From positions 1-11,574 of the forward strand of contig JAJPZU010000112.1 in assembly GCA_021204165.1 (NCBI GenBank): a DNA stretch of 11,574 nt, in the 5' to 3' direction. The translations under genes were made by a program, and so were the position numbers. This DNA comes from Prevotellaceae bacterium. Lineage in GTDB: Bacteria > Bacteroidota > Bacteroidia > Bacteroidales > Bacteroidaceae. Under the pieces are notes generated by a model. The model did not search any database, was not told the DNA's origin, and was given only the letters and a program-made list of their open reading frames with translations. Each line of letters begins with the position of its first letter. Position 1 is the first letter of the stretch. Below, piece after piece: positions 3,836-11,574 of this stretch.

Positions 3836-4431
3836 CTATATTTGGTTATACACTTTCTTCCATCTCAAAACAAAATATAATACGATATCAGAAAGCACAC
3901 TCCGAGAACCGCATGACAAAGCGGACAACTCACGAAAGAATACATATCCCAAGAATACATGAATACACAAAAAACACCGATATTCCATCCCGGAATCTCA
4001 GCAAAACAGTATTCTCAGTATTTTTCCGGCAGCTCTTATTCCCGAGAGCGGCATCTGAACATCGGCATCGGCAGGTCTTCTGACTTCTCCATTGGCAGCA
4101 CGGCCTTCCCAACCACAATTATTTACAGCCTCACGGCAATAACAAAGGTCAGTGGCACAACATGATGATGTGTTGCCATAAAAAACAGGAGTTACAGCTA
4201 CGGGTATAGTTACAGACTCACACTGTATTCCCTCTTAGTCTGTCCGTCTTTCCTGAGTGCTTCTTCCTGAAGTCCGCCATTCCCGAAATCAGATTAGGCA
4301 AATTCCAGTCTCAACAAGCCTCAAATGAAGAGGACAAGAACCAAATGCGCGGCAAAAGTACACATAAAATCCGAATCCATGCACTTTTTACCATATTTTT
4401 ACTCCAAACATTCTATGAAACTCTTGTGTTT

Positions 4432-4512
4432 TCTCCGGTATTTCCCCTGTGCTTTTCCGGTATTTTCCCGGTGTTCTTCCTGTATTTTTCCTGTATTTTC
4501 CCGGTTTTTTCC
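4432..4512. repeat. Degenerate tandem direct repeat, about 3.5 copies of a ~22-24 bp unit (TTYYCCGGTATTTYCCCKGTGYT)
   Basis: Three units are ttctccggtatttcccctgtgc / ttttccggtattttcccggtgttc / ttcctgtatttttcctgtattttcccggtttttt. Lies immediately 3' (minus-strand sense) of the flotillin terminator, in the non-coding gap. Confidence 0.6.
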
Positions 4513-4578: not shown

Positions 4579-5955
4579 TCAGTCTTCTACTTCTTCCGCA
4601 TCCACAGCAGGCTCTTCTTTTTTCTTCGCCAGATACTCCGGCAAATTAAGCCCCGCCATATCGAAAAGTTCGTTAAGCGGCGGAACAGACTTCATCAGTC
4701 CGGACACGAAACCGGCTGTAGAGCCTTTTCCGTCTGCACCACCGGCACCATTGTCCCAAACAGTCACATGGTCAATGTTGATACCCTTGACAGCCTCAAC
4801 CTGAGTCTTGACAAGCTCAGGAAGCTTTTCGAGCAGCAACAGCATGTATGCCTTGTTGGCATCTCCTCCGGCAGCCTGAACCATCTTGTCATAACCGGCA
4901 GCCTGCTTCGTCAGCACTTCATACAAACCTTTTGCTTCTGCCTCCATCTTGGCATAAATGGCATCTGCTTCACCCTTTGCATTGACACGCACGCGCTCTG
5001 CTTCCGCCTCCGCTTCGATGATAAGTCGTCTCTTCTCAATCTCCTGCGGAACGAGTACGTTGGCTGTTTCCGTAGAGCGTTCACGTTCTGCACGCGCTTC
5101 CTCAGCCTCGCGTTCTGCCGCGTATGCTTCCTGCAATGCCTTTGCCTGCTGTACTTTTTCTGAGGCTGTGGCTTTACGCTGTGCCTCCGCTTCCTTCTCA
5201 CGGCGATAAGCCTCGGATGCAGCAATGGCAACCTTCGCTTCGTTCTCACCCTTTACGGCTTCCGCATTGGCTTCGGCTGTACGTATGCGGGTTTCTCTCA
5301 CCGCTTCCGCCTTACCGATTTCACCGACTTTATCTTGCTCTGCCACTCTCACTTTTGCCTCATTTATCGCTTTGGCAGCAGCTTCACGTCCGAGAGCCTC
5401 TATATATCCGCTCTCATCTTTTATATCGGTCACGTTCACATTTATCAGACGAAGACCAATCTTTTTCAGTTCCACTTCTACATTGGCAGAAATGCTCTCA
5501 AGAAACTTGTCACGGTCGTTGTTCAGTTCCTCAATACTCATCGTGGCAATTACCAGACGCAACTGTCCGAAAAGAATATCACGCGCCAGTTCCTGTATCT
5601 GTGCAGCACTAAGTCCGAGCAAACGTTCCGCAGCTGCATTCATGCAATCGTGGTCTGTAGATATACCCACAGTGAAGCGGCTTGGCACATCCACACGGAT
5701 GTTCTGTTTGCTGAGCGCATTTGTCAGATTCGCATCAATACTGATTGGTGTAAGGCTAAGATAAGCATAGTCTTCGATTATAGGCCATACGAAAGCACCG
5801 CCGCCATGCACGCAACGTGCCGACGTTTTGCTGCTTTTACTCCCATAAATCACCAAAATTTTGTCCGAAGGACACCGTCTGTAACGATTCACAATGGAAA
5901 CGAACAGCGCAATAGCCACTACAGCGGCAATTACAATAAGATACATAGATTCCAT
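4579..5955 (-). CDS. Flotillin-family SPFH/band-7 domain protein (YqiK/FloT-like), 458 aa
   Basis: N-terminal TM helix (YLIVIAAVVAIALFVSIV), then an SPFH domain, then a long Glu/Ala-rich coiled coil (AEQDKVGEIGKAEAVRETRIRTAEANAEAV...EAEAQRKA...EAEAEAERVRV). Sits downstream of an NfeD-like gene, the canonical yqiJ-yqiK / nfeD-floT arrangement. Confidence 0.88.
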   Translation of the reverse strand: MESMYLIVIAAVVAIALFVSIVNRYRRCPSDKILVIYGSKSSKTSARCVHGGGAFVWPIIEDYAYLSLTPISIDANLTNALSKQNIRVDVPSRFTVGISTDHDCMNAAAERLLGLSAAQIQELARDILFGQLRLVIATMSIEELNNDRDKFLESISANVEVELKKIGLRLINVNVTDIKDESGYIEALGREAAAKAINEAKVRVAEQDKVGEIGKAEAVRETRIRTAEANAEAVKGENEAKVAIAASEAYRREKEAEAQRKATASEKVQQAKALQEAYAAEREAEEARAERERSTETANVLVPQEIEKRRLIIEAEAEAERVRVNAKGEADAIYAKMEAEAKGLYEVLTKQAAGYDKMVQAAGGDANKAYMLLLLEKLPELVKTQVEAVKGINIDHVTVWDNGAGGADGKGSTAGFVSGLMKSVPPLNELFDMAGLNLPEYLAKKKEEPAVDAEEVED

Positions 5956-6050
5956 AATTAATTATTTTAATATCCAACTTTTCAAGATTACAAGACCGGT
6001 TGCCGCATGAAGTGCCCCCTGTCTGAAGAAAGTTTCAAATTCATCTCTCT

Positions 6051-6140
6051 TGGTCAAAAATTCTCATCCCTTTGGGTCAAAATTTTCATTCCTTTAGTCA
6101 AAAAAATCTCATCCCTTTGGGTCAAAGATTCTCTACCACC
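6051..6140. repeat. Four tandem ~22-23 bp direct repeats, consensus GGGTCAAAAATTCTCATCCCTTT
   Basis: Units at 6051..6073, 6074..6095, 6096..6118 and 6119..6140 (tggtcaaaaattctcatcccttt / gggtcaaaattttcattccttt / agtcaaaaaaatctcatcccttt / gggtcaaagattctctaccacc). The last unit overlaps the final codons and stop of the NfeD gene. The array fills the nfeD-flotillin intergenic space. Confidence 0.8.
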
Positions 6141-6700
6141 AGCATTTCTCCGCCGACAACATCAGTAATCCGCACCTTGCGCCCTGTGGTTATCGCCTCA
6201 CCCTCTGTAACCGCATCCAGTTCATGCACGGAACCGTTCACACTTATCTGCACTTTTCCTCTGCCGCTCTTCTTCTCCGGAATGCGCAGATAGACATCTG
6301 CCACACGTCCCTTGCAATATTCAATGCGGAAGGCGCCGTTTGCCTCCAGCTTCTTGGTCTGCTTGTAGATAAAGAAGAACATCCACACAAAAAACAAGCC
6401 TACGGCTGCTGCCACGAGTGCCAGCAACACAGCATTACCCATCAGCGAATGCAGACAGACACCTGCCCAGCCGAAGCCCACAAAGAAATTGACAAGGCTC
6501 CTTATAGAGAACAACGACAGTCCTCCTCCCAAATCCATTGTGTCTCCGGCATCAAAATCGACATCTATGTCGCTTGAATCCATTCCGAACAACGTAAGCA
6601 GAAGCTGTATTACAAACACAGCTGACCCGACAAGTGCACAAACCCAGAACACTTGCTGCATAGTTTCAAGTCCACTGAACCAAATTGAAAAACTCTCCAT
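6122..6700 (-). CDS. NfeD-family membrane protein (YqiJ-like partner of flotillin), 192 aa
   Basis: Several N-terminal TM helices, a short acidic loop (DSSDIDVDFDAGD) and a C-terminal OB-fold/beta-barrel segment (KGRVADVYLRIPEKKSGRGKVQISVNGSVHELDAV...VRITDVVGGEMLVVENL) typical of NfeD. Immediately upstream of the flotillin gene. Confidence 0.8.
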   Translation of the reverse strand: MESFSIWFSGLETMQQVFWVCALVGSAVFVIQLLLTLFGMDSSDIDVDFDAGDTMDLGGGLSLFSIRSLVNFFVGFGWAGVCLHSLMGNAVLLALVAAAVGLFFVWMFFFIYKQTKKLEANGAFRIEYCKGRVADVYLRIPEKKSGRGKVQISVNGSVHELDAVTEGEAITTGRKVRITDVVGGEMLVVENL

Positions 6701-6899
6701 ATTCTAATTAGTTTTACGGTTATATAAATCATATTCTGAAATGATATGTCCACCATCTATTTTACAAAGAGGGAACATCCTTAAAAAAAATAACATTACC
6801 AGACTGCATTTTTCATTAAACACTCTCCTTCTCACTGCATTTTCATAATTCATAAAAGACTCCGATTAATTATTTTAATGATAAATGCCAATCTTATAA

Positions 6900-7580
6900 T
6901 TACCATACATATTGCGATGGATATTTTACTTGCATGAAAGTGAAGCCATGCCCCATTACGCTATGGTGAGAAGTCGTCTGTGCTGTCATATTTGATACAA
7001 TACTGCCAAACACCTGCATATTTGCTCTTGCGTCACCGCGTGAAGCAAGAATGGGTGCATCAGGGACATCGTAATCGCGCCATGCAAATAAGCAGACCTT
7101 TTGGGGATATGTCAAGAGATTTACAGCTGTTGTAGATTCTTGAATCAAAACTTCTATCGATTTAAGCATTTGCTGTCTGGCTTTTGCCCGTTTCCCTTCC
7201 GGGTATTTTCCCGTATTAGGCTCAACATATTTTTCCTCATAACAACACAAGTCACAGAATACAACTTTTTCATGTACCATTCCTGTCTCTGTCATTAATA
7301 AATCACATCGGTCTTTAATATTGGCAGTAGTGCCTGCAAATTGTTCGATATACTTTTCAAAACGAACCACAGCAATTTCCTTGCCATTATTATTCACCTT
7401 CAGAACTTCTTTATTGCATTCATTACGGTAAGCCCTTTCAGGCAATTGCTGACATCGTATGCAACTCTTGGAGTCGGTTTCTGAGAAAGGTTCGCGTATT
7501 CTGTAGAGAGGCACTTCTACTTCTTGTGGATTTATGCCATAATGGAGCGGGAATGCCTTTTTAAGAAAAGATTCTATCAT
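6900..7580 (-). CDS. Uncharacterised 226-aa protein with a Cys cluster (CxxC...CxxCC), translationally coupled partner of the upstream AAA ATPase. Candidate effector of a two-gene defence module.
   Basis: Start ATG overlaps the ATPase stop (ATGA at 7577..7580). Residues CIRC (40-43) and FCDLCCY (~112-118) could form a Zn-ribbon. No family recognised from sequence alone. Confidence 0.55.
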   Translation of the reverse strand: MIESFLKKAFPLHYGINPQEVEVPLYRIREPFSETDSKSCIRCQQLPERAYRNECNKEVLKVNNNGKEIAVVRFEKYIEQFAGTTANIKDRCDLLMTETGMVHEKVVFCDLCCYEEKYVEPNTGKYPEGKRAKARQQMLKSIEVLIQESTTAVNLLTYPQKVCLFAWRDYDVPDAPILASRGDARANMQVFGSIVSNMTAQTTSHHSVMGHGFTFMQVKYPSQYVW

Positions 7581-8737
7581 ACGTCAAGATTTACAAATTC
7601 ATTATAAATGTGACTCATCAACTCTGAGAGGTCGTAAGTATCTACAATCCACCGTCCGCGTTCATTTTGGACAAGCAAATCTTGTATCTCTCCTTCATAT
7701 ATTCGATAAACAGCCGTGTTAGTCCTGCTCAATTGGGCACGTACTGCATTTGTTTGGTTTAGTAAAACATTCAAGTAGTTAAGAATATACGGACTATGGG
7801 TCGCAAGCATCATATTAATTTCTCGATTTTCATCCGCATGTGTTGCCGACAGCACAATTTCTTCTATGAGTTTGCACTGTGCATCAGGGAACAGACTTAA
7901 CTCAGGTTCTTCAATATGGATATATACTTGTTTCTTCAAATCGCTGGGTTCTGCGACAGCCCGAAACTTGTTCAATCTTTCCATATCATACAGATAGTTC
8001 AGGACAGAGCGCTTGAATGCGTCCTTAAATGAAAAGCCATTTGCGCTGGCATAGTTCTTTACAATCAAAGCGACCGATGCTGACGTTTGAATGCCGGATG
8101 AAGCTTCTCGTAAGTCGATTGGCTCATGACGGCTGTCATTTGGAATGACGGTGTAGCGTGTAGGCTTACCTTTGGGGTGGGTTATCTGAAGCTTCATGCC
8201 TATATAGTCCAACGGTATCTCTTTGTCGTTTGCCGATGCTCTGACAAAATCATTGTTTGTTTCATGAAAATAAAATCCCAAGGTTGCACCTGTGTTTTGG
8301 GATGCCTTTTGCGCCCATGTCGGAATGATGTTTCGGTTTTCAGAGATATAGGACACTTTGTTGAACACCAAATGGTCAGAAGATATAATGGGAAGTCTGC
8401 CTAATTTCTTGTTTTCCATCAAGATGGTGTATTCCGTTTCATCATCCATGACTACACTATACCTAATTACACTTGACGAGTCAAGCATTTTATACATTCC
8501 CGTTTCTTTCATCATCGAATCGAAGCGCATCCTGAAAGGAGAGCTTGTTATTTTTGAATGCTTCAAATAAGAACGGATGTTTGCCATTTTGTACAGATAG
8601 CGCATCATGCTTATCAGCTTCATCAGTGTGCTTTTACCACTTGCGGATTCACCAATCAACACAGTGAATGGCAGAAGGCCAAGGTTCTCAATGTGCTTTA
8701 GCGGACCAATATTTTTAATTGTTATAAATTCCTTCAT
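7577..8737 (-). CDS. AAA_15/AAA_21-family ABC-type (SMC-like) ATPase, about 386 aa. The six-frame ORF extends to 8815, but the conserved N-terminus begins at Met-27 (MKEFITIKNIGPLKHIENL).
   Basis: N-terminal M-x-x-I-x-IKNxxxxxxxxxLxxxxxxxVLIGxNxSGKST architecture with Walker A GESASGKST. Walker B/D-loop VYIHIEEPELSLFPDAQ and H-loop MLATHSPYIL. This family supplies the ATPase of Septu (PtuA), OLD/Gabija N-domains, RloA-like and several Abi systems. The region is visibly more AT-rich than its neighbours. Confidence 0.8.
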   Translation of the reverse strand: MKEFITIKNIGPLKHIENLGLLPFTVLIGESASGKSTLMKLISMMRYLYKMANIRSYLKHSKITSSPFRMRFDSMMKETGMYKMLDSSSVIRYSVVMDDETEYTILMENKKLGRLPIISSDHLVFNKVSYISENRNIIPTWAQKASQNTGATLGFYFHETNNDFVRASANDKEIPLDYIGMKLQITHPKGKPTRYTVIPNDSRHEPIDLREASSGIQTSASVALIVKNYASANGFSFKDAFKRSVLNYLYDMERLNKFRAVAEPSDLKKQVYIHIEEPELSLFPDAQCKLIEEIVLSATHADENREINMMLATHSPYILNYLNVLLNQTNAVRAQLSRTNTAVYRIYEGEIQDLLVQNERGRWIVDTYDLSELMSHIYNEFVNLDV

Positions 8738-8956
8738 AATAAAGTTTTGTTTTTCAAACAATCTGATAAAGTATGATTTACCCAATAAAGATACTAATTT
8801 GTACTTCAACAGCAAAAAAAATCCTGTATTGTGACGCTAAAAACGTGAATTTATTACAGAAATGGCACTTTGTCATGTCAAATCAGAAGGTGAAGTGTCA
8901 AAACAGGAGATACAATCCAAACTTATTGTTGCATGAACATCTGGGGCCAGAGCCGC

Positions 8957-9478
8957 CTAATCCTCCAGCCAGTCCTCCGACAAACTGAAGTCCTTGTCCG
9001 CAAACAAGTCCGCCAGCCCGGAAATCTGCTTCAGCCTCAACAGCTCATCCTTGTCCATGCCGATATTGCGCATAATCCACGCATCCGACATGCCCGCAGA
9101 CGTAAGCTCCGACACGATGTGGCTCATCAGCTCTATCGTGTGCGTACCCCTCGCCCTGTTATGACGTATGGTCGAAGCCATTCTGCACGAAATATCCTTG
9201 TCTATCACCGACACGGGAAGCATCCCCTTCTCCCTGTCATAAATTCGTTTCGATGTCTTCATCACCAGATAGCGGTGGAATCCATCTACAATCTCATACT
9301 TGTCCTCGTCCTTCAAGTAATAGCACACGCAAGGCATGGTGTACCCGTCCTCCCATATCGACAGTTCCAACAGCTTCATCTCCGGAGGAGCCACCATGTT
9401 GGGGTTATAATTGTTCGCCACCACTTTCTCGATAGGCACTGCTATCACATTATATACCGGACTCTTAAAATTTTCCAT
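8957..9478 (-). CDS. IbrB-like ParB/Srx-fold (ParB N-terminal nuclease-like, DGxHR) protein, 173 aa
   Basis: ParB-domain motifs VANNYNPN and EIVDGFHR. Overlaps the upstream PAPS-reductase-like gene by 14 nt. The gene pair matches E. coli ibrA-ibrB / ybdN-ybdM and is analogous to DndC-DndB. Confidence 0.8.
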   Translation of the reverse strand: MENFKSPVYNVIAVPIEKVVANNYNPNMVAPPEMKLLELSIWEDGYTMPCVCYYLKDEDKYEIVDGFHRYLVMKTSKRIYDREKGMLPVSVIDKDISCRMASTIRHNRARGTHTIELMSHIVSELTSAGMSDAWIMRNIGMDKDELLRLKQISGLADLFADKDFSLSEDWLED

Positions 9479-10763
9479 ATTCCAATGCTTTATATTTTCT
9501 CATCACACTTTCTCGTCTGCTCTTCTCATTCTTGGTCAGGGTAAAGCCCATGTACTTACACACATGGTCGTTTCTCAGTATGCAGATGCAGACACGCTTG
9601 AATGTCGGAATCTCCCGAAACTCCGGAATGTCTATGTCGTCAACGTACTCCATCATGACCGGTCTTTTGTTAGTGCGGTATGCCGTGGTCGTCCCAACCG
9701 TAAACTTCACCCCTGCCGCACGCAATTTTTCAATGGTCTCATCGCTCAGACATCCGCCTTTCGTCCTCCAGAATCTCATGCTCACACCTATCTTGTCCAG
9801 ATAATTGCGGCACACCTTCTCCGGCAACGTGTCCAGCAGAAAGTACATGTACTTTTTCCAAGAAAATCCGTGAGGACATTTTATCGACTTCCATCCCATA
9901 GCCGTCGTATTCCCGTAGATGCCGGAAAAATTGACACCATTGACACGGCTGACCATCCGCCCCCACATGTCGGGGTCTATCGCCCGATAGACACTCAGCG
10001 TAGGTATGGCATGAGAAATGAACGGACTTGCCACCCGCTGCCGCCCAATCGGAATGCCCGCACGCGAATAAAGGTCATAAAGCGGATTATAAGTCCATCC
10101 GAATTTTCCGTTTGCCGTCCAGATGTCAGATGTTTTCCAGTCATAAAGCGGATAAGCGTTATACACATGTGCAGCAAGCTTATGTGTCCATTTGTAATGC
10201 GAAAGCCGCCGGTAGTTCTTGGCATTGTGTATGGCCGTCCACCGGTTAAAACTCTCCTGCGTCCTTATGCCTACAAGACAACATATACGTTCACATTTCT
10301 TCCGGTTGCGCAGCCAAGGGGCGAAAAGATACTGGAAGTCATAGTCCCACAAGGCATCAGTGAAGAAATTGAAATCGGCTGCCGTATAAGCCCCCTCAGG
10401 CATTTCCCTCACCCATATATCCTTCTCCGATTCTCCCCAAGGTCTCCAATACGACTGGTGCATGGATGTACAGGTCATGACTTTGAAGGGCACGCAACAA
10501 TGGTACACCTCCAGAATGTCGCGATTCTCCGACAGGGTACGGCGCACATACTCCGTGGTCTGCCGGTACTGCACCTCGTAGTCCATGTGGAACACACCCA
10601 GCTTACGTCCCGGAGCATACCTCCGTATATAGTCTATGCACAGATTCAACAACACTCCGCTGTCCTTGCCACCCGAAAACGAGACATACACATAATCGAA
10701 ATAATCGAATATGATCTTCAGCCTCCTTTGCACTGCTTCATAAACATCAAGTTGCCTAATCAT
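9465..10763 (-). CDS. IbrA-like phosphoadenosine-phosphosulfate-reductase-family PP-loop ATP pyrophosphatase with a long C-terminal (DUF3440-like) extension, 432 aa
   Basis: N-terminal PP-loop SFSGGKDS (VYVSFSGGKDSGVLLNL) characteristic of the PAPS reductase/DndC/YbdN family. Its size and the overlapping ParB-like downstream gene match the IbrA/IbrB pairing. Confidence 0.8.
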   Translation of the reverse strand: MIRQLDVYEAVQRRLKIIFDYFDYVYVSFSGGKDSGVLLNLCIDYIRRYAPGRKLGVFHMDYEVQYRQTTEYVRRTLSENRDILEVYHCCVPFKVMTCTSMHQSYWRPWGESEKDIWVREMPEGAYTAADFNFFTDALWDYDFQYLFAPWLRNRKKCERICCLVGIRTQESFNRWTAIHNAKNYRRLSHYKWTHKLAAHVYNAYPLYDWKTSDIWTANGKFGWTYNPLYDLYSRAGIPIGRQRVASPFISHAIPTLSVYRAIDPDMWGRMVSRVNGVNFSGIYGNTTAMGWKSIKCPHGFSWKKYMYFLLDTLPEKVCRNYLDKIGVSMRFWRTKGGCLSDETIEKLRAAGVKFTVGTTTAYRTNKRPVMMEYVDDIDIPEFREIPTFKRVCICILRNDHVCKYMGFTLTKNEKSRRESVMRKYKALEYGKF

Positions 10764-11439: not shown

Positions 11440-11574
11440 TTTAACGGACTCCTCATGTGTATTTAGTGGAATGTTTTTATATTTGGTGGGGTGTTCTCGG
11501 CAGACTCCTCATGTGTGAATTGTATGTGTTAGCAGACGTTTTCGACAGACTCCTCCGTCGCTACCGCGCCACCT
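11440..11574. repeat. Right terminal inverted-repeat arm, ending exactly at the window edge. Core 11538..11574. Three motif copies (as reverse complement GAGGAGTCTG/GAGGAGTCCG) at 11546..11555, 11501..11510 and 11445..11454.
   Basis: Reverse complement of 11440..11574 reads aggtggcgcggtagcgacg-GAGGAGTCTGtcgaaaac...acacatGAGGAGTCTGccgagaacacccc...acacatGAGGAGTCCGttaaatagac. Motif order and orientation mirror the left arm. Inner spacings are 45 and 56 bp. Confidence 0.85.

Follow-up and report, generated by a model that had tools for sequence, protein, structure and literature searches.

A four-copy tandem repeat at an nfeD-flotillin junction of Prevotellaceae, a probable lineage-specific duplication

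Several described classes of bacterial repeat resemble the tandem array that lies between an nfeD-like gene and a flotillin gene in the Prevotellaceae DNA analysed here (the window, the whole stretch of 11,574 bp). The closest is the intergenic minisatellite or VNTR, which arises by slipped-strand mispairing. Like the array, it consists of a head-to-tail unit of 10-100 bp in non-coding DNA, with a single-copy progenitor and conserved flanks in relatives, copy differences between lineages, and short direct repeats bracketing the unit. In contrast to hypervariable VNTRs, the array has a copy number that appears stable within each lineage and a unit that includes the stop codon of the upstream gene. 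Heptamer direct repeats of the TAACTGA type occur upstream of start codons in Beggiatoaceae, Cyanobacteria, and some Bacteroidetes (MacGregor 2015, PMC4679880). They share with the array their position as direct repeats in short co-oriented spacers and their strain-specific indels of whole units, and many orthologous nfeD-flotillin junctions carry repeats of this heptamer kind, with units of 7-8 bp. The array differs in its 23-bp unit, in the 87 nt that separate its last copy from the flotillin start codon, in the lack of heptamer substructure, and in its derivation from the 3' end of nfeD; on the last two grounds, an origin in common with the heptamer junction repeats of other species was ruled out.

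Three further classes are more distant. Simple-sequence-repeat contingency loci, for example in Haemophilus and Neisseria, are built of perfectly identical units of 1-7 nt that vary within populations (PMC12721329). They resemble the array as intergenic tracts that might, through their length, influence how the downstream gene is expressed, whereas the array has 23-nt units that are 74-91% identical and no variation was seen within the lineage. Iterons, the 17-22 bp Rep-binding direct repeats of plasmids and phages, are similar in unit length, direct orientation, and a spacing of about two helical turns; the array, in contrast, sits in a chromosomal operon spacer with no initiator gene or origin, its copies are diverged, and relatives hold only one. 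Phased A-tract curved DNA upstream of promoters also has A/T runs at multiples of about 11 bp, but at the array the downstream promoter is only putative and the periodicity follows trivially from the repeat.

The repeat array and its transcription unit

Tandem Repeats Finder (TRF) places the junction array at 6041-6133, with a period of 23, 4.1 copies, 75% matches, 8% indels, and a score of 107. The 22-mer TTGACCCAAAGGGATGAGAATT has two matches in the window at one mismatch or fewer, a number reached by 0 of 200 dinucleotide-preserving shuffles, and the head-to-tail copies are thus beyond chance by both measures. Every gene in the window lies on the minus strand, and the copies are given here in the coding sense, whereas the unit first reported was a plus-strand reading. 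Copy 1 (6133-6111, minus strand; GAGAATCTTTGACCCAAAGGGAT) starts with GAG AAT CTT TGA, in which the NfeD-like gene ends: three codons for E-N-L and then the stop, TGA, at 6124-6122. Copy 2 (6110-6088, minus strand; GAGATTTTTTTGACTAAAGGAAT) is the most diverged, sharing 17-18 of 23 positions with any other copy. Copy 3 (6087-6066, minus strand; GAAAATTTTGACCCAAAGGGAT) has 21 of 23 positions in common with copy 1. Copy 4 (6065-6043, minus strand; GAGAATTTTTGACCAAGAGAGAT) is followed by a tail or partial fifth unit (6042-6032, minus strand; GAATTTGAAAC) that resembles the unit start GA.AAT.TTTGA, and it is copy 4 with this tail that aligns to the single copy of relatives. The remainder of the spacer (5956-6031, minus strand; 76 nt) is unique sequence homologous to the spacer of relatives.

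A sequence-only reading had described four near-perfect tandem repeats that overlap the nfeD stop and fill the 166-bp gap between the genes. The four copies and the overlap are borne out by the TRF score, the shuffles, and the stop codon inside copy 1. The description as near-perfect is too strong, as pairwise identity is only 17-21 of 23 positions (74-91%), and the array takes up about half of the gap (5956-6121, 166 bp), the 76 nt of unique sequence making part of the rest. The same four-copy junction is present, base for base, in two other contigs, L001 (SRR15221345) and L002 (SRR15221343), and this agreement among three independent assemblies rules out an assembly artefact. A CRISPR-like array was likewise ruled out, the units abutting without spacers.

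The upstream gene (6122-6700, minus strand; MCD8236124.1) encodes an NfeD-like membrane protein of 192 aa that matches the Pfam NfeD C-terminal domain at only E = 0.035, and NCBI names its homologues NfeD family protein or serine protease. Downstream, the 458-aa flotillin (4579-5955, minus strand) carries Band_7/SPFH and Flot domains (Band_7 E = 7e-28). The two genes are co-oriented with the NfeD-like gene immediately upstream, the context of NfeD-SPFH/flotillin operons, and they stay adjacent in 78 of 80 orthologous loci. No terminator-like site was found in the junction, and RNA folding of 5950-6145 on the minus strand was no better than that of shuffles (z = 0.05), against z = -4.13 for an intrinsic terminator after flotillin (4558-4515, minus strand), where a hairpin is followed by six T (U6 in RNA). 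The latter site probably marks the end of the nfeD-flotillin transcription unit. Because the junction has no terminator and flotillin is followed by a strong one, the simplest transcript model is that nfeD and flotillin are co-transcribed and that the array would be an untranslated spacer within their transcript; the shortness of most orthologous nfeD-flotillin gaps also fits co-transcription.

Copy number in relatives and probable origin

To place the array among its relatives, we compared 29 contigs whose NfeD proteins fall into one 90%-identity cluster with that of the window. They come from many independent samples and sequencing projects, represent 8 junction haplotypes, and include two NCBI MAGs and, from a pocket-mouse gut metagenome, a contig of 28 kb. 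One contig, L094, a single-copy relative from pocket-mouse gut, was found not via the protein cluster but by a DNA pattern scan of metagenomes anchored on the flank rather than on the unit. Measured against the NfeD-like protein, the close relatives are 96-97% identical, with one further relative at 85% and another at 76%. All 29 of the closest-relative contigs have one unit and a 99-bp gap, while four units and a 166-bp gap occur, among the contigs compared, only in the window, L001, and L002; no copy number between 1 and 4 was seen in the 29 relatives and the three four-copy assemblies. The flanks align between the two states, and the single unit and tail of relatives (GAGAATaTTTGACCgAGAGgGAT-GAAAAGTGAAAC) align with copy 4 and tail of the window. 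The locus at 85% NfeD identity (L091) has one recognisable unit-like stretch, and no unit was found in the locus at 76% (L092). Nor is the unit present in 77 species-level orthologous junctions from Prevotellaceae/Bacteroidaceae MAGs, where the gap is usually about 20-90 bp (range 5-591 bp). Since the 29 relatives are single-copy and the unit is absent from more distant junctions, one unit with a 99-bp spacer is, judged from these alignments, the ancestral state, and the array a derived gain of 67 bp in one lineage.

The sequence-only reading had proposed to look through the genome for other copies of the 22-mer; there are no further copies of the unit in the 11.6-kb window, and none in the other fetched loci beyond the homologous junctions. 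A comparison with viral contigs gave one single match, inside coding-looking sequence, which by a rough estimate is about the chance number for an 18-mer. As for the suggestion that the junction is a hot spot for repeat-number variation, and that copy number be compared in related species, the difference of four against one between lineages supports it weakly, but the junction is not a hot spot, the number being invariant within each lineage: the 8 sister haplotypes are all single-copy and the expanded assemblies are identical.

We consider it most likely that the array is a lineage-specific, microhomology-mediated tandem duplication that is near-neutral and is carried passively in the nfeD-flotillin transcript with no dedicated function. 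An imperfect direct repeat flanks the unit where relatives have only one copy: GAGAAT.TTTGA opens it, and GAAAAGTGA / GAAAAATGA follows immediately (in more general form, GA.AAT.TTTGA ... GAAAAGTGA/GAATTTGA). An imperfect bracketing repeat of this kind is a classical substrate for slippage-type tandem duplication, and here it is a candidate microhomology for the first duplication. The duplicated segment would be 23 bp long, comprising the last NfeD-like codons, the stop, and the first 11 nt of the spacer, and extra copies would have been produced by replication slippage or unequal exchange at the microhomology and would then have diverged by point mutation. The 42-nt stretch 6040-6081, which takes in the tail, copy 4, and the first bases of copy 3, has a second occurrence at a distance of 45 bp with 81% identity; at a 23-bp spacing the identity is 64%. 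Because of this recurrence, and because copies 1 and 3 agree at 21 of 23 positions, a later duplication of a two-unit (45-bp) block may be proposed, which would have given four copies and the additional 67 bp. The pattern of identities thus suggests an early duplication, divergence, and a later duplication of the two-unit block, although both the slippage mechanism and the order of duplications are inferred.

The consequences for the two genes would be slight. As copy 1 retains the original stop codon, the NfeD-like protein is unchanged, and as the 76 nt beside the flotillin start also stay in place, the array would be carried as mere extra untranslated spacer that, at most, slightly loosens the coupling of nfeD and flotillin. 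The divergence of the sequence is compatible with this. At fourfold degenerate sites the window differs from its relative L084 by 24.8% (327 of 1321 sites); differences between copies, at 2-6 of 23 positions (9-26%), do not exceed this divergence, and the spacer with the 11-nt tail (5956-6042) is 76-78% identical to that of relatives, about the same as fourfold degenerate sites. Copies and spacer thus fit neutral drift after a duplication that would postdate the split of the lineages. The sequence-only reading had also named what would make the array a probable neutral slippage product, and this is essentially what the comparison returned: the array is absent from orthologous junctions, and the junction gives no sequence signal for a transcript boundary.

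Alignment of the whole contig with L084 (90.5% identity) revealed only two large internal indels, the 67 bp gained at the junction and 67 bp gained at a second array at 4425-4512; other large indels are in the repeat-bearing contig ends. As both large internal indels are arrays, tandem arrays are what expanded in this lineage. Both expansions are exactly 67 bp and lead to about four units of ~22 bp, an equality that may be a coincidence.

Tandem repeats are also frequent in the spacers of the wider clade. Contrary to the expectation that phased repeats inside an operon are unusual, 30 of the 77 orthologous junctions carry some tandem repeat of their own, unrelated to this one and mostly with units of 7-8 bp. 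Tandem-repeat coverage across the 77 loci is 9.5% in co-oriented spacers and 10% in convergent ones, against 3% in divergent spacers and 0.56% in coding DNA, and the distribution of periods peaks at 7, 11, 14, and 21-22. Because convergent spacers match co-oriented ones and coding coverage is low, repeats accumulate wherever sequence is unconstrained and not specifically in promoters or leaders. Non-coding spacers in these Prevotellaceae tend in general to accumulate tandem repeats, with the array as one case, and regularly spaced repeats, being common there, should not be taken for regulatory sites without comparative support. The biological importance of the array is small, and it is an instance of a well-known kind, the intergenic tandem duplication or minisatellite. 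It is, at the same time, a clean and datable microhomology-bracketed duplication in which a stop codon and its surroundings were copied and neither protein was changed, and the difference between one and four copies is of practical value as a lineage marker.

Alternative readings of the repeats

An internal promoter, as the sequence-only reading had suggested, would make flotillin partly independent of nfeD, the phased A/T tracts of the array serving as curved upstream activating DNA for a weak promoter at TAATCTTG; we regard such a gain as unlikely. The Bacteroidetes sigma-A consensus comprises a -7 box TAnnTTTG and a -33 TTTG about 19-21 bp upstream. Exact TAnnTTTG boxes precede three other minus-strand transcription units (11320-11313, 8925-8918, and 4360-4353), but none was found between 5956 and 6140 on either strand, where the best candidate, TAATCTTG (5990-5983), is one mismatch from the consensus, lies about 50 bp downstream of the array, and is replaced by TAACCTTA in relatives. 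The combination of -33 TTTG and -7 box at consensus spacing is missing from the whole window, although with 0.31 matches expected by chance this pattern is too strict to inform. No sigma-70-like site lies inside the array, and the one such site in the junction (5993-5964, in the unique spacer) is within chance expectation.

The AA/TT periodicity of the array at 10.5-11.25 bp, in which A/T tracts are roughly in helical phase, is at the 98th-99th percentile of the window, and the other segments with high values lie in promoter regions with TAnnTTTG boxes. The second array is similarly placed, about 65-150 bp upstream of the perfect -7 box at 4360-4353. Against this, any ~22-bp tandem repeat with an A/T run yields such a periodicity by construction, with its period of 22-23 bp each unit departs from helical phase by 1.5 bp, tandem repeats of the clade are as frequent in convergent (promoterless) spacers and rarest in divergent ones, and 29 relatives do without the array. 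A broader version of the same idea, to which we give marginally less credence, holds that neither 67-bp expansion is neutral and that local tandem duplication is a recurrent route in Prevotellaceae to curved upstream activating DNA, here with a new internal promoter. In both expansions, A/T tracts do fall close to helical phase, at a distance of 50-150 bp upstream from a -7 or -7-like box; if the idea were true, the new promoter would uncouple flotillin from its NfeD partner.

It is quite improbable that the repeats act at the RNA level, be it as predicted sites for an RNA-binding protein (AAAGGGAUGA / AAGGAAUGA in each unit, of GGA type) or by adjusting the NfeD:flotillin ratio through processing or attenuation. 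The array does lie in a presumably transcribed spacer, with no terminator-like site before flotillin and a strong one after it, and A-A-G-G-(G/A)-A-U-G-A is kept in three of the four units. This motif resembles a GGA-containing CsrA-type site, a lead only, and we know of no CsrA in Bacteroidota, which counts against such a reading. The motif is conserved no better than the rest of the unit, relatives hold one copy, and the fold energy of the junction equals that of shuffles, which, together with the lack of a terminator-like site, also speaks against the attenuator of the sequence-only reading. A search of the whole window against Rfam at E <= 1 found no junction family, the only match being a sub-threshold chance one to RSV_RNA, with 16.9 bits where the gathering score is 105.

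Still less probable is an iteron-like or operator array, in which four direct repeats about two helical turns apart would be cooperative sites for a regulator or replication initiator. The likeness is in the unit of 22-23 bp, the head-to-tail arrangement, and the spacing. Whereas iterons are near-identical direct repeats of 17-22 bp, the four copies here share 17-21 of 23 positions, have no sharply conserved core, and have drifted roughly as fast as neutral sites. Outside the junction, the unit is missing from the window, as from all other loci, and the array is not conserved among related replicons, with one copy in the 29 close relatives and none in the 77 junctions. The genomic context points the same way: no Rep-like domain was found in the ORFs of the window, there is no DnaA-box or origin-like context, the neighbours being nfeD and flotillin, and GC skew, negative to either side of the array, keeps its sign there.

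A phase-variable contingency locus, which would switch flotillin expression through frequent changes in unit number, has the one-against-four copy difference between lineages to recommend it and is the least credible of these readings, as 23-nt diverged units disfavour frequent slippage, the array is neither in an ORF nor in a promoter spacer, the three independent assemblies of the expanded lineage are identical, and the 29 relatives are fixed at one copy with no intermediates.

Other repeats and genes around the junction

The second tandem array (4425-4512) is built of an 11-bp unit, on the coding strand TACCGGAAAAA, that is repeated about 7.6 times, and can also be read as 4 x 22. It lies between the flotillin terminator and the perfect -7 box TACTTTTG (4360-4353), ahead of a cobalamin riboswitch (4053-4296, minus strand; Rfam RF00174, 71.6 bits). 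Relatives have 2 units, the window being longer by 67 bp, equal to the junction expansion. This array has the strongest AA/TT helical periodicity in the window and is plausibly curved DNA upstream of a promoter.

The junction units of the orthologous loci L003-L082 include GGTAAAC, CATTGAA, CTAACCC, GGCTAAC, and CACCAATC, the junctions lying at ~3900-4000 in most of these loci. In two species, a 23S_rRNA_IVP gene (four-helix bundle, PF05635) stands between nfeD and flotillin (L071, 3400-3992; L072, 3572-3992) and is flanked by heptamer arrays. Those of L072 are inverted, with CATTGAA before the gene and AATGTTC after it, and in L071 the gene is preceded by an inverted pair (GGTTTAC, TAAACGG) and followed by a direct TAAACAG array. 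There are hints here that heptamer arrays and small 23S_rRNA_IVP genes travel together, and these flanking arrays and the clade-wide spacer repeats deserve dedicated study more than the present array does.

Three other species (L038, L039, and L046) have a tiny ORF between nfeD and flotillin, its product being one hydrophobic helix that ends in a basic tail (e.g., MGIFAILAIVVIVVAWWQHIRNRRHYK); the only Pfam match of this ORF is a below-threshold one to DUF202. Small ORFs starting from ATG inside the units of the array were rejected: they are not conserved, and a 27-codon ORF of relatives is frame-shifted in the window. As a gene, this 27-codon ORF was also rejected, with 5 non-synonymous against 2 synonymous changes between L084 and L094 by hand count. 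Directly upstream of the NfeD-like gene, an ORF of 46-49 aa (window ~6704-6853, minus strand) is called in L001 and in close relatives that carry the ATPase cassette described below, and could belong to the nfeD-flotillin unit as its third gene.

Farther upstream, a 134-aa ORF (11164-10760, minus strand) is followed by a PAPS_reduct/DUF3440 gene (10763-9465, minus strand) that overlaps a small gene for a weakly matching ParB_N-like protein (9478-8957, minus strand). The overlapping pair (8957-10763, minus strand) is conserved in close relatives and resembles an IbrA/IbrB-like pair. Next come an AAA_21/AAA_15 ATPase gene (8815-7577, minus strand) and a 226-aa ORF (7580-6900, minus strand), a pair (6900-8815, minus strand) of low GC (0.38-0.40) that varies between strains. 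It is absent from L094, where 157 bp stand in place of ~2.15 kb, and from 16 of 20 further related contigs, in which the ParB-like gene is directly followed by the nfeD region. Weak NCBIfam matches of the pair to a retron Eco8 effector and the MADS3 ATPase suggest a defence-type cassette.

Downstream of the riboswitch lies a biotin carboxylase / BCCP / carboxyltransferase operon (3835-227, minus strand). This arrangement is conserved in L084, L091, L092, and L094, and the riboswitch was not found in four more distant loci; to our knowledge, an acyl-CoA carboxylase operon is not a standard member of the B12 regulon. The two contig ends (1-160 and 11420-11574) are mutual inverted repeats up to the termini, with a perfect match of 27 nt at 20-46 / 11538-11564 and a further 53 nt matching at 77%, and contain tandem units of ~36 bp (GAGGAGTCTGYYGAAAACAYCC...). 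Their sequences are absent in relatives, whose contigs run on (L094) or stop at a different 20-nt inverted repeat (CGAAAATATCATTTTGTCAA), and are probably part of a dispersed repeat element at which assembly breaks off.
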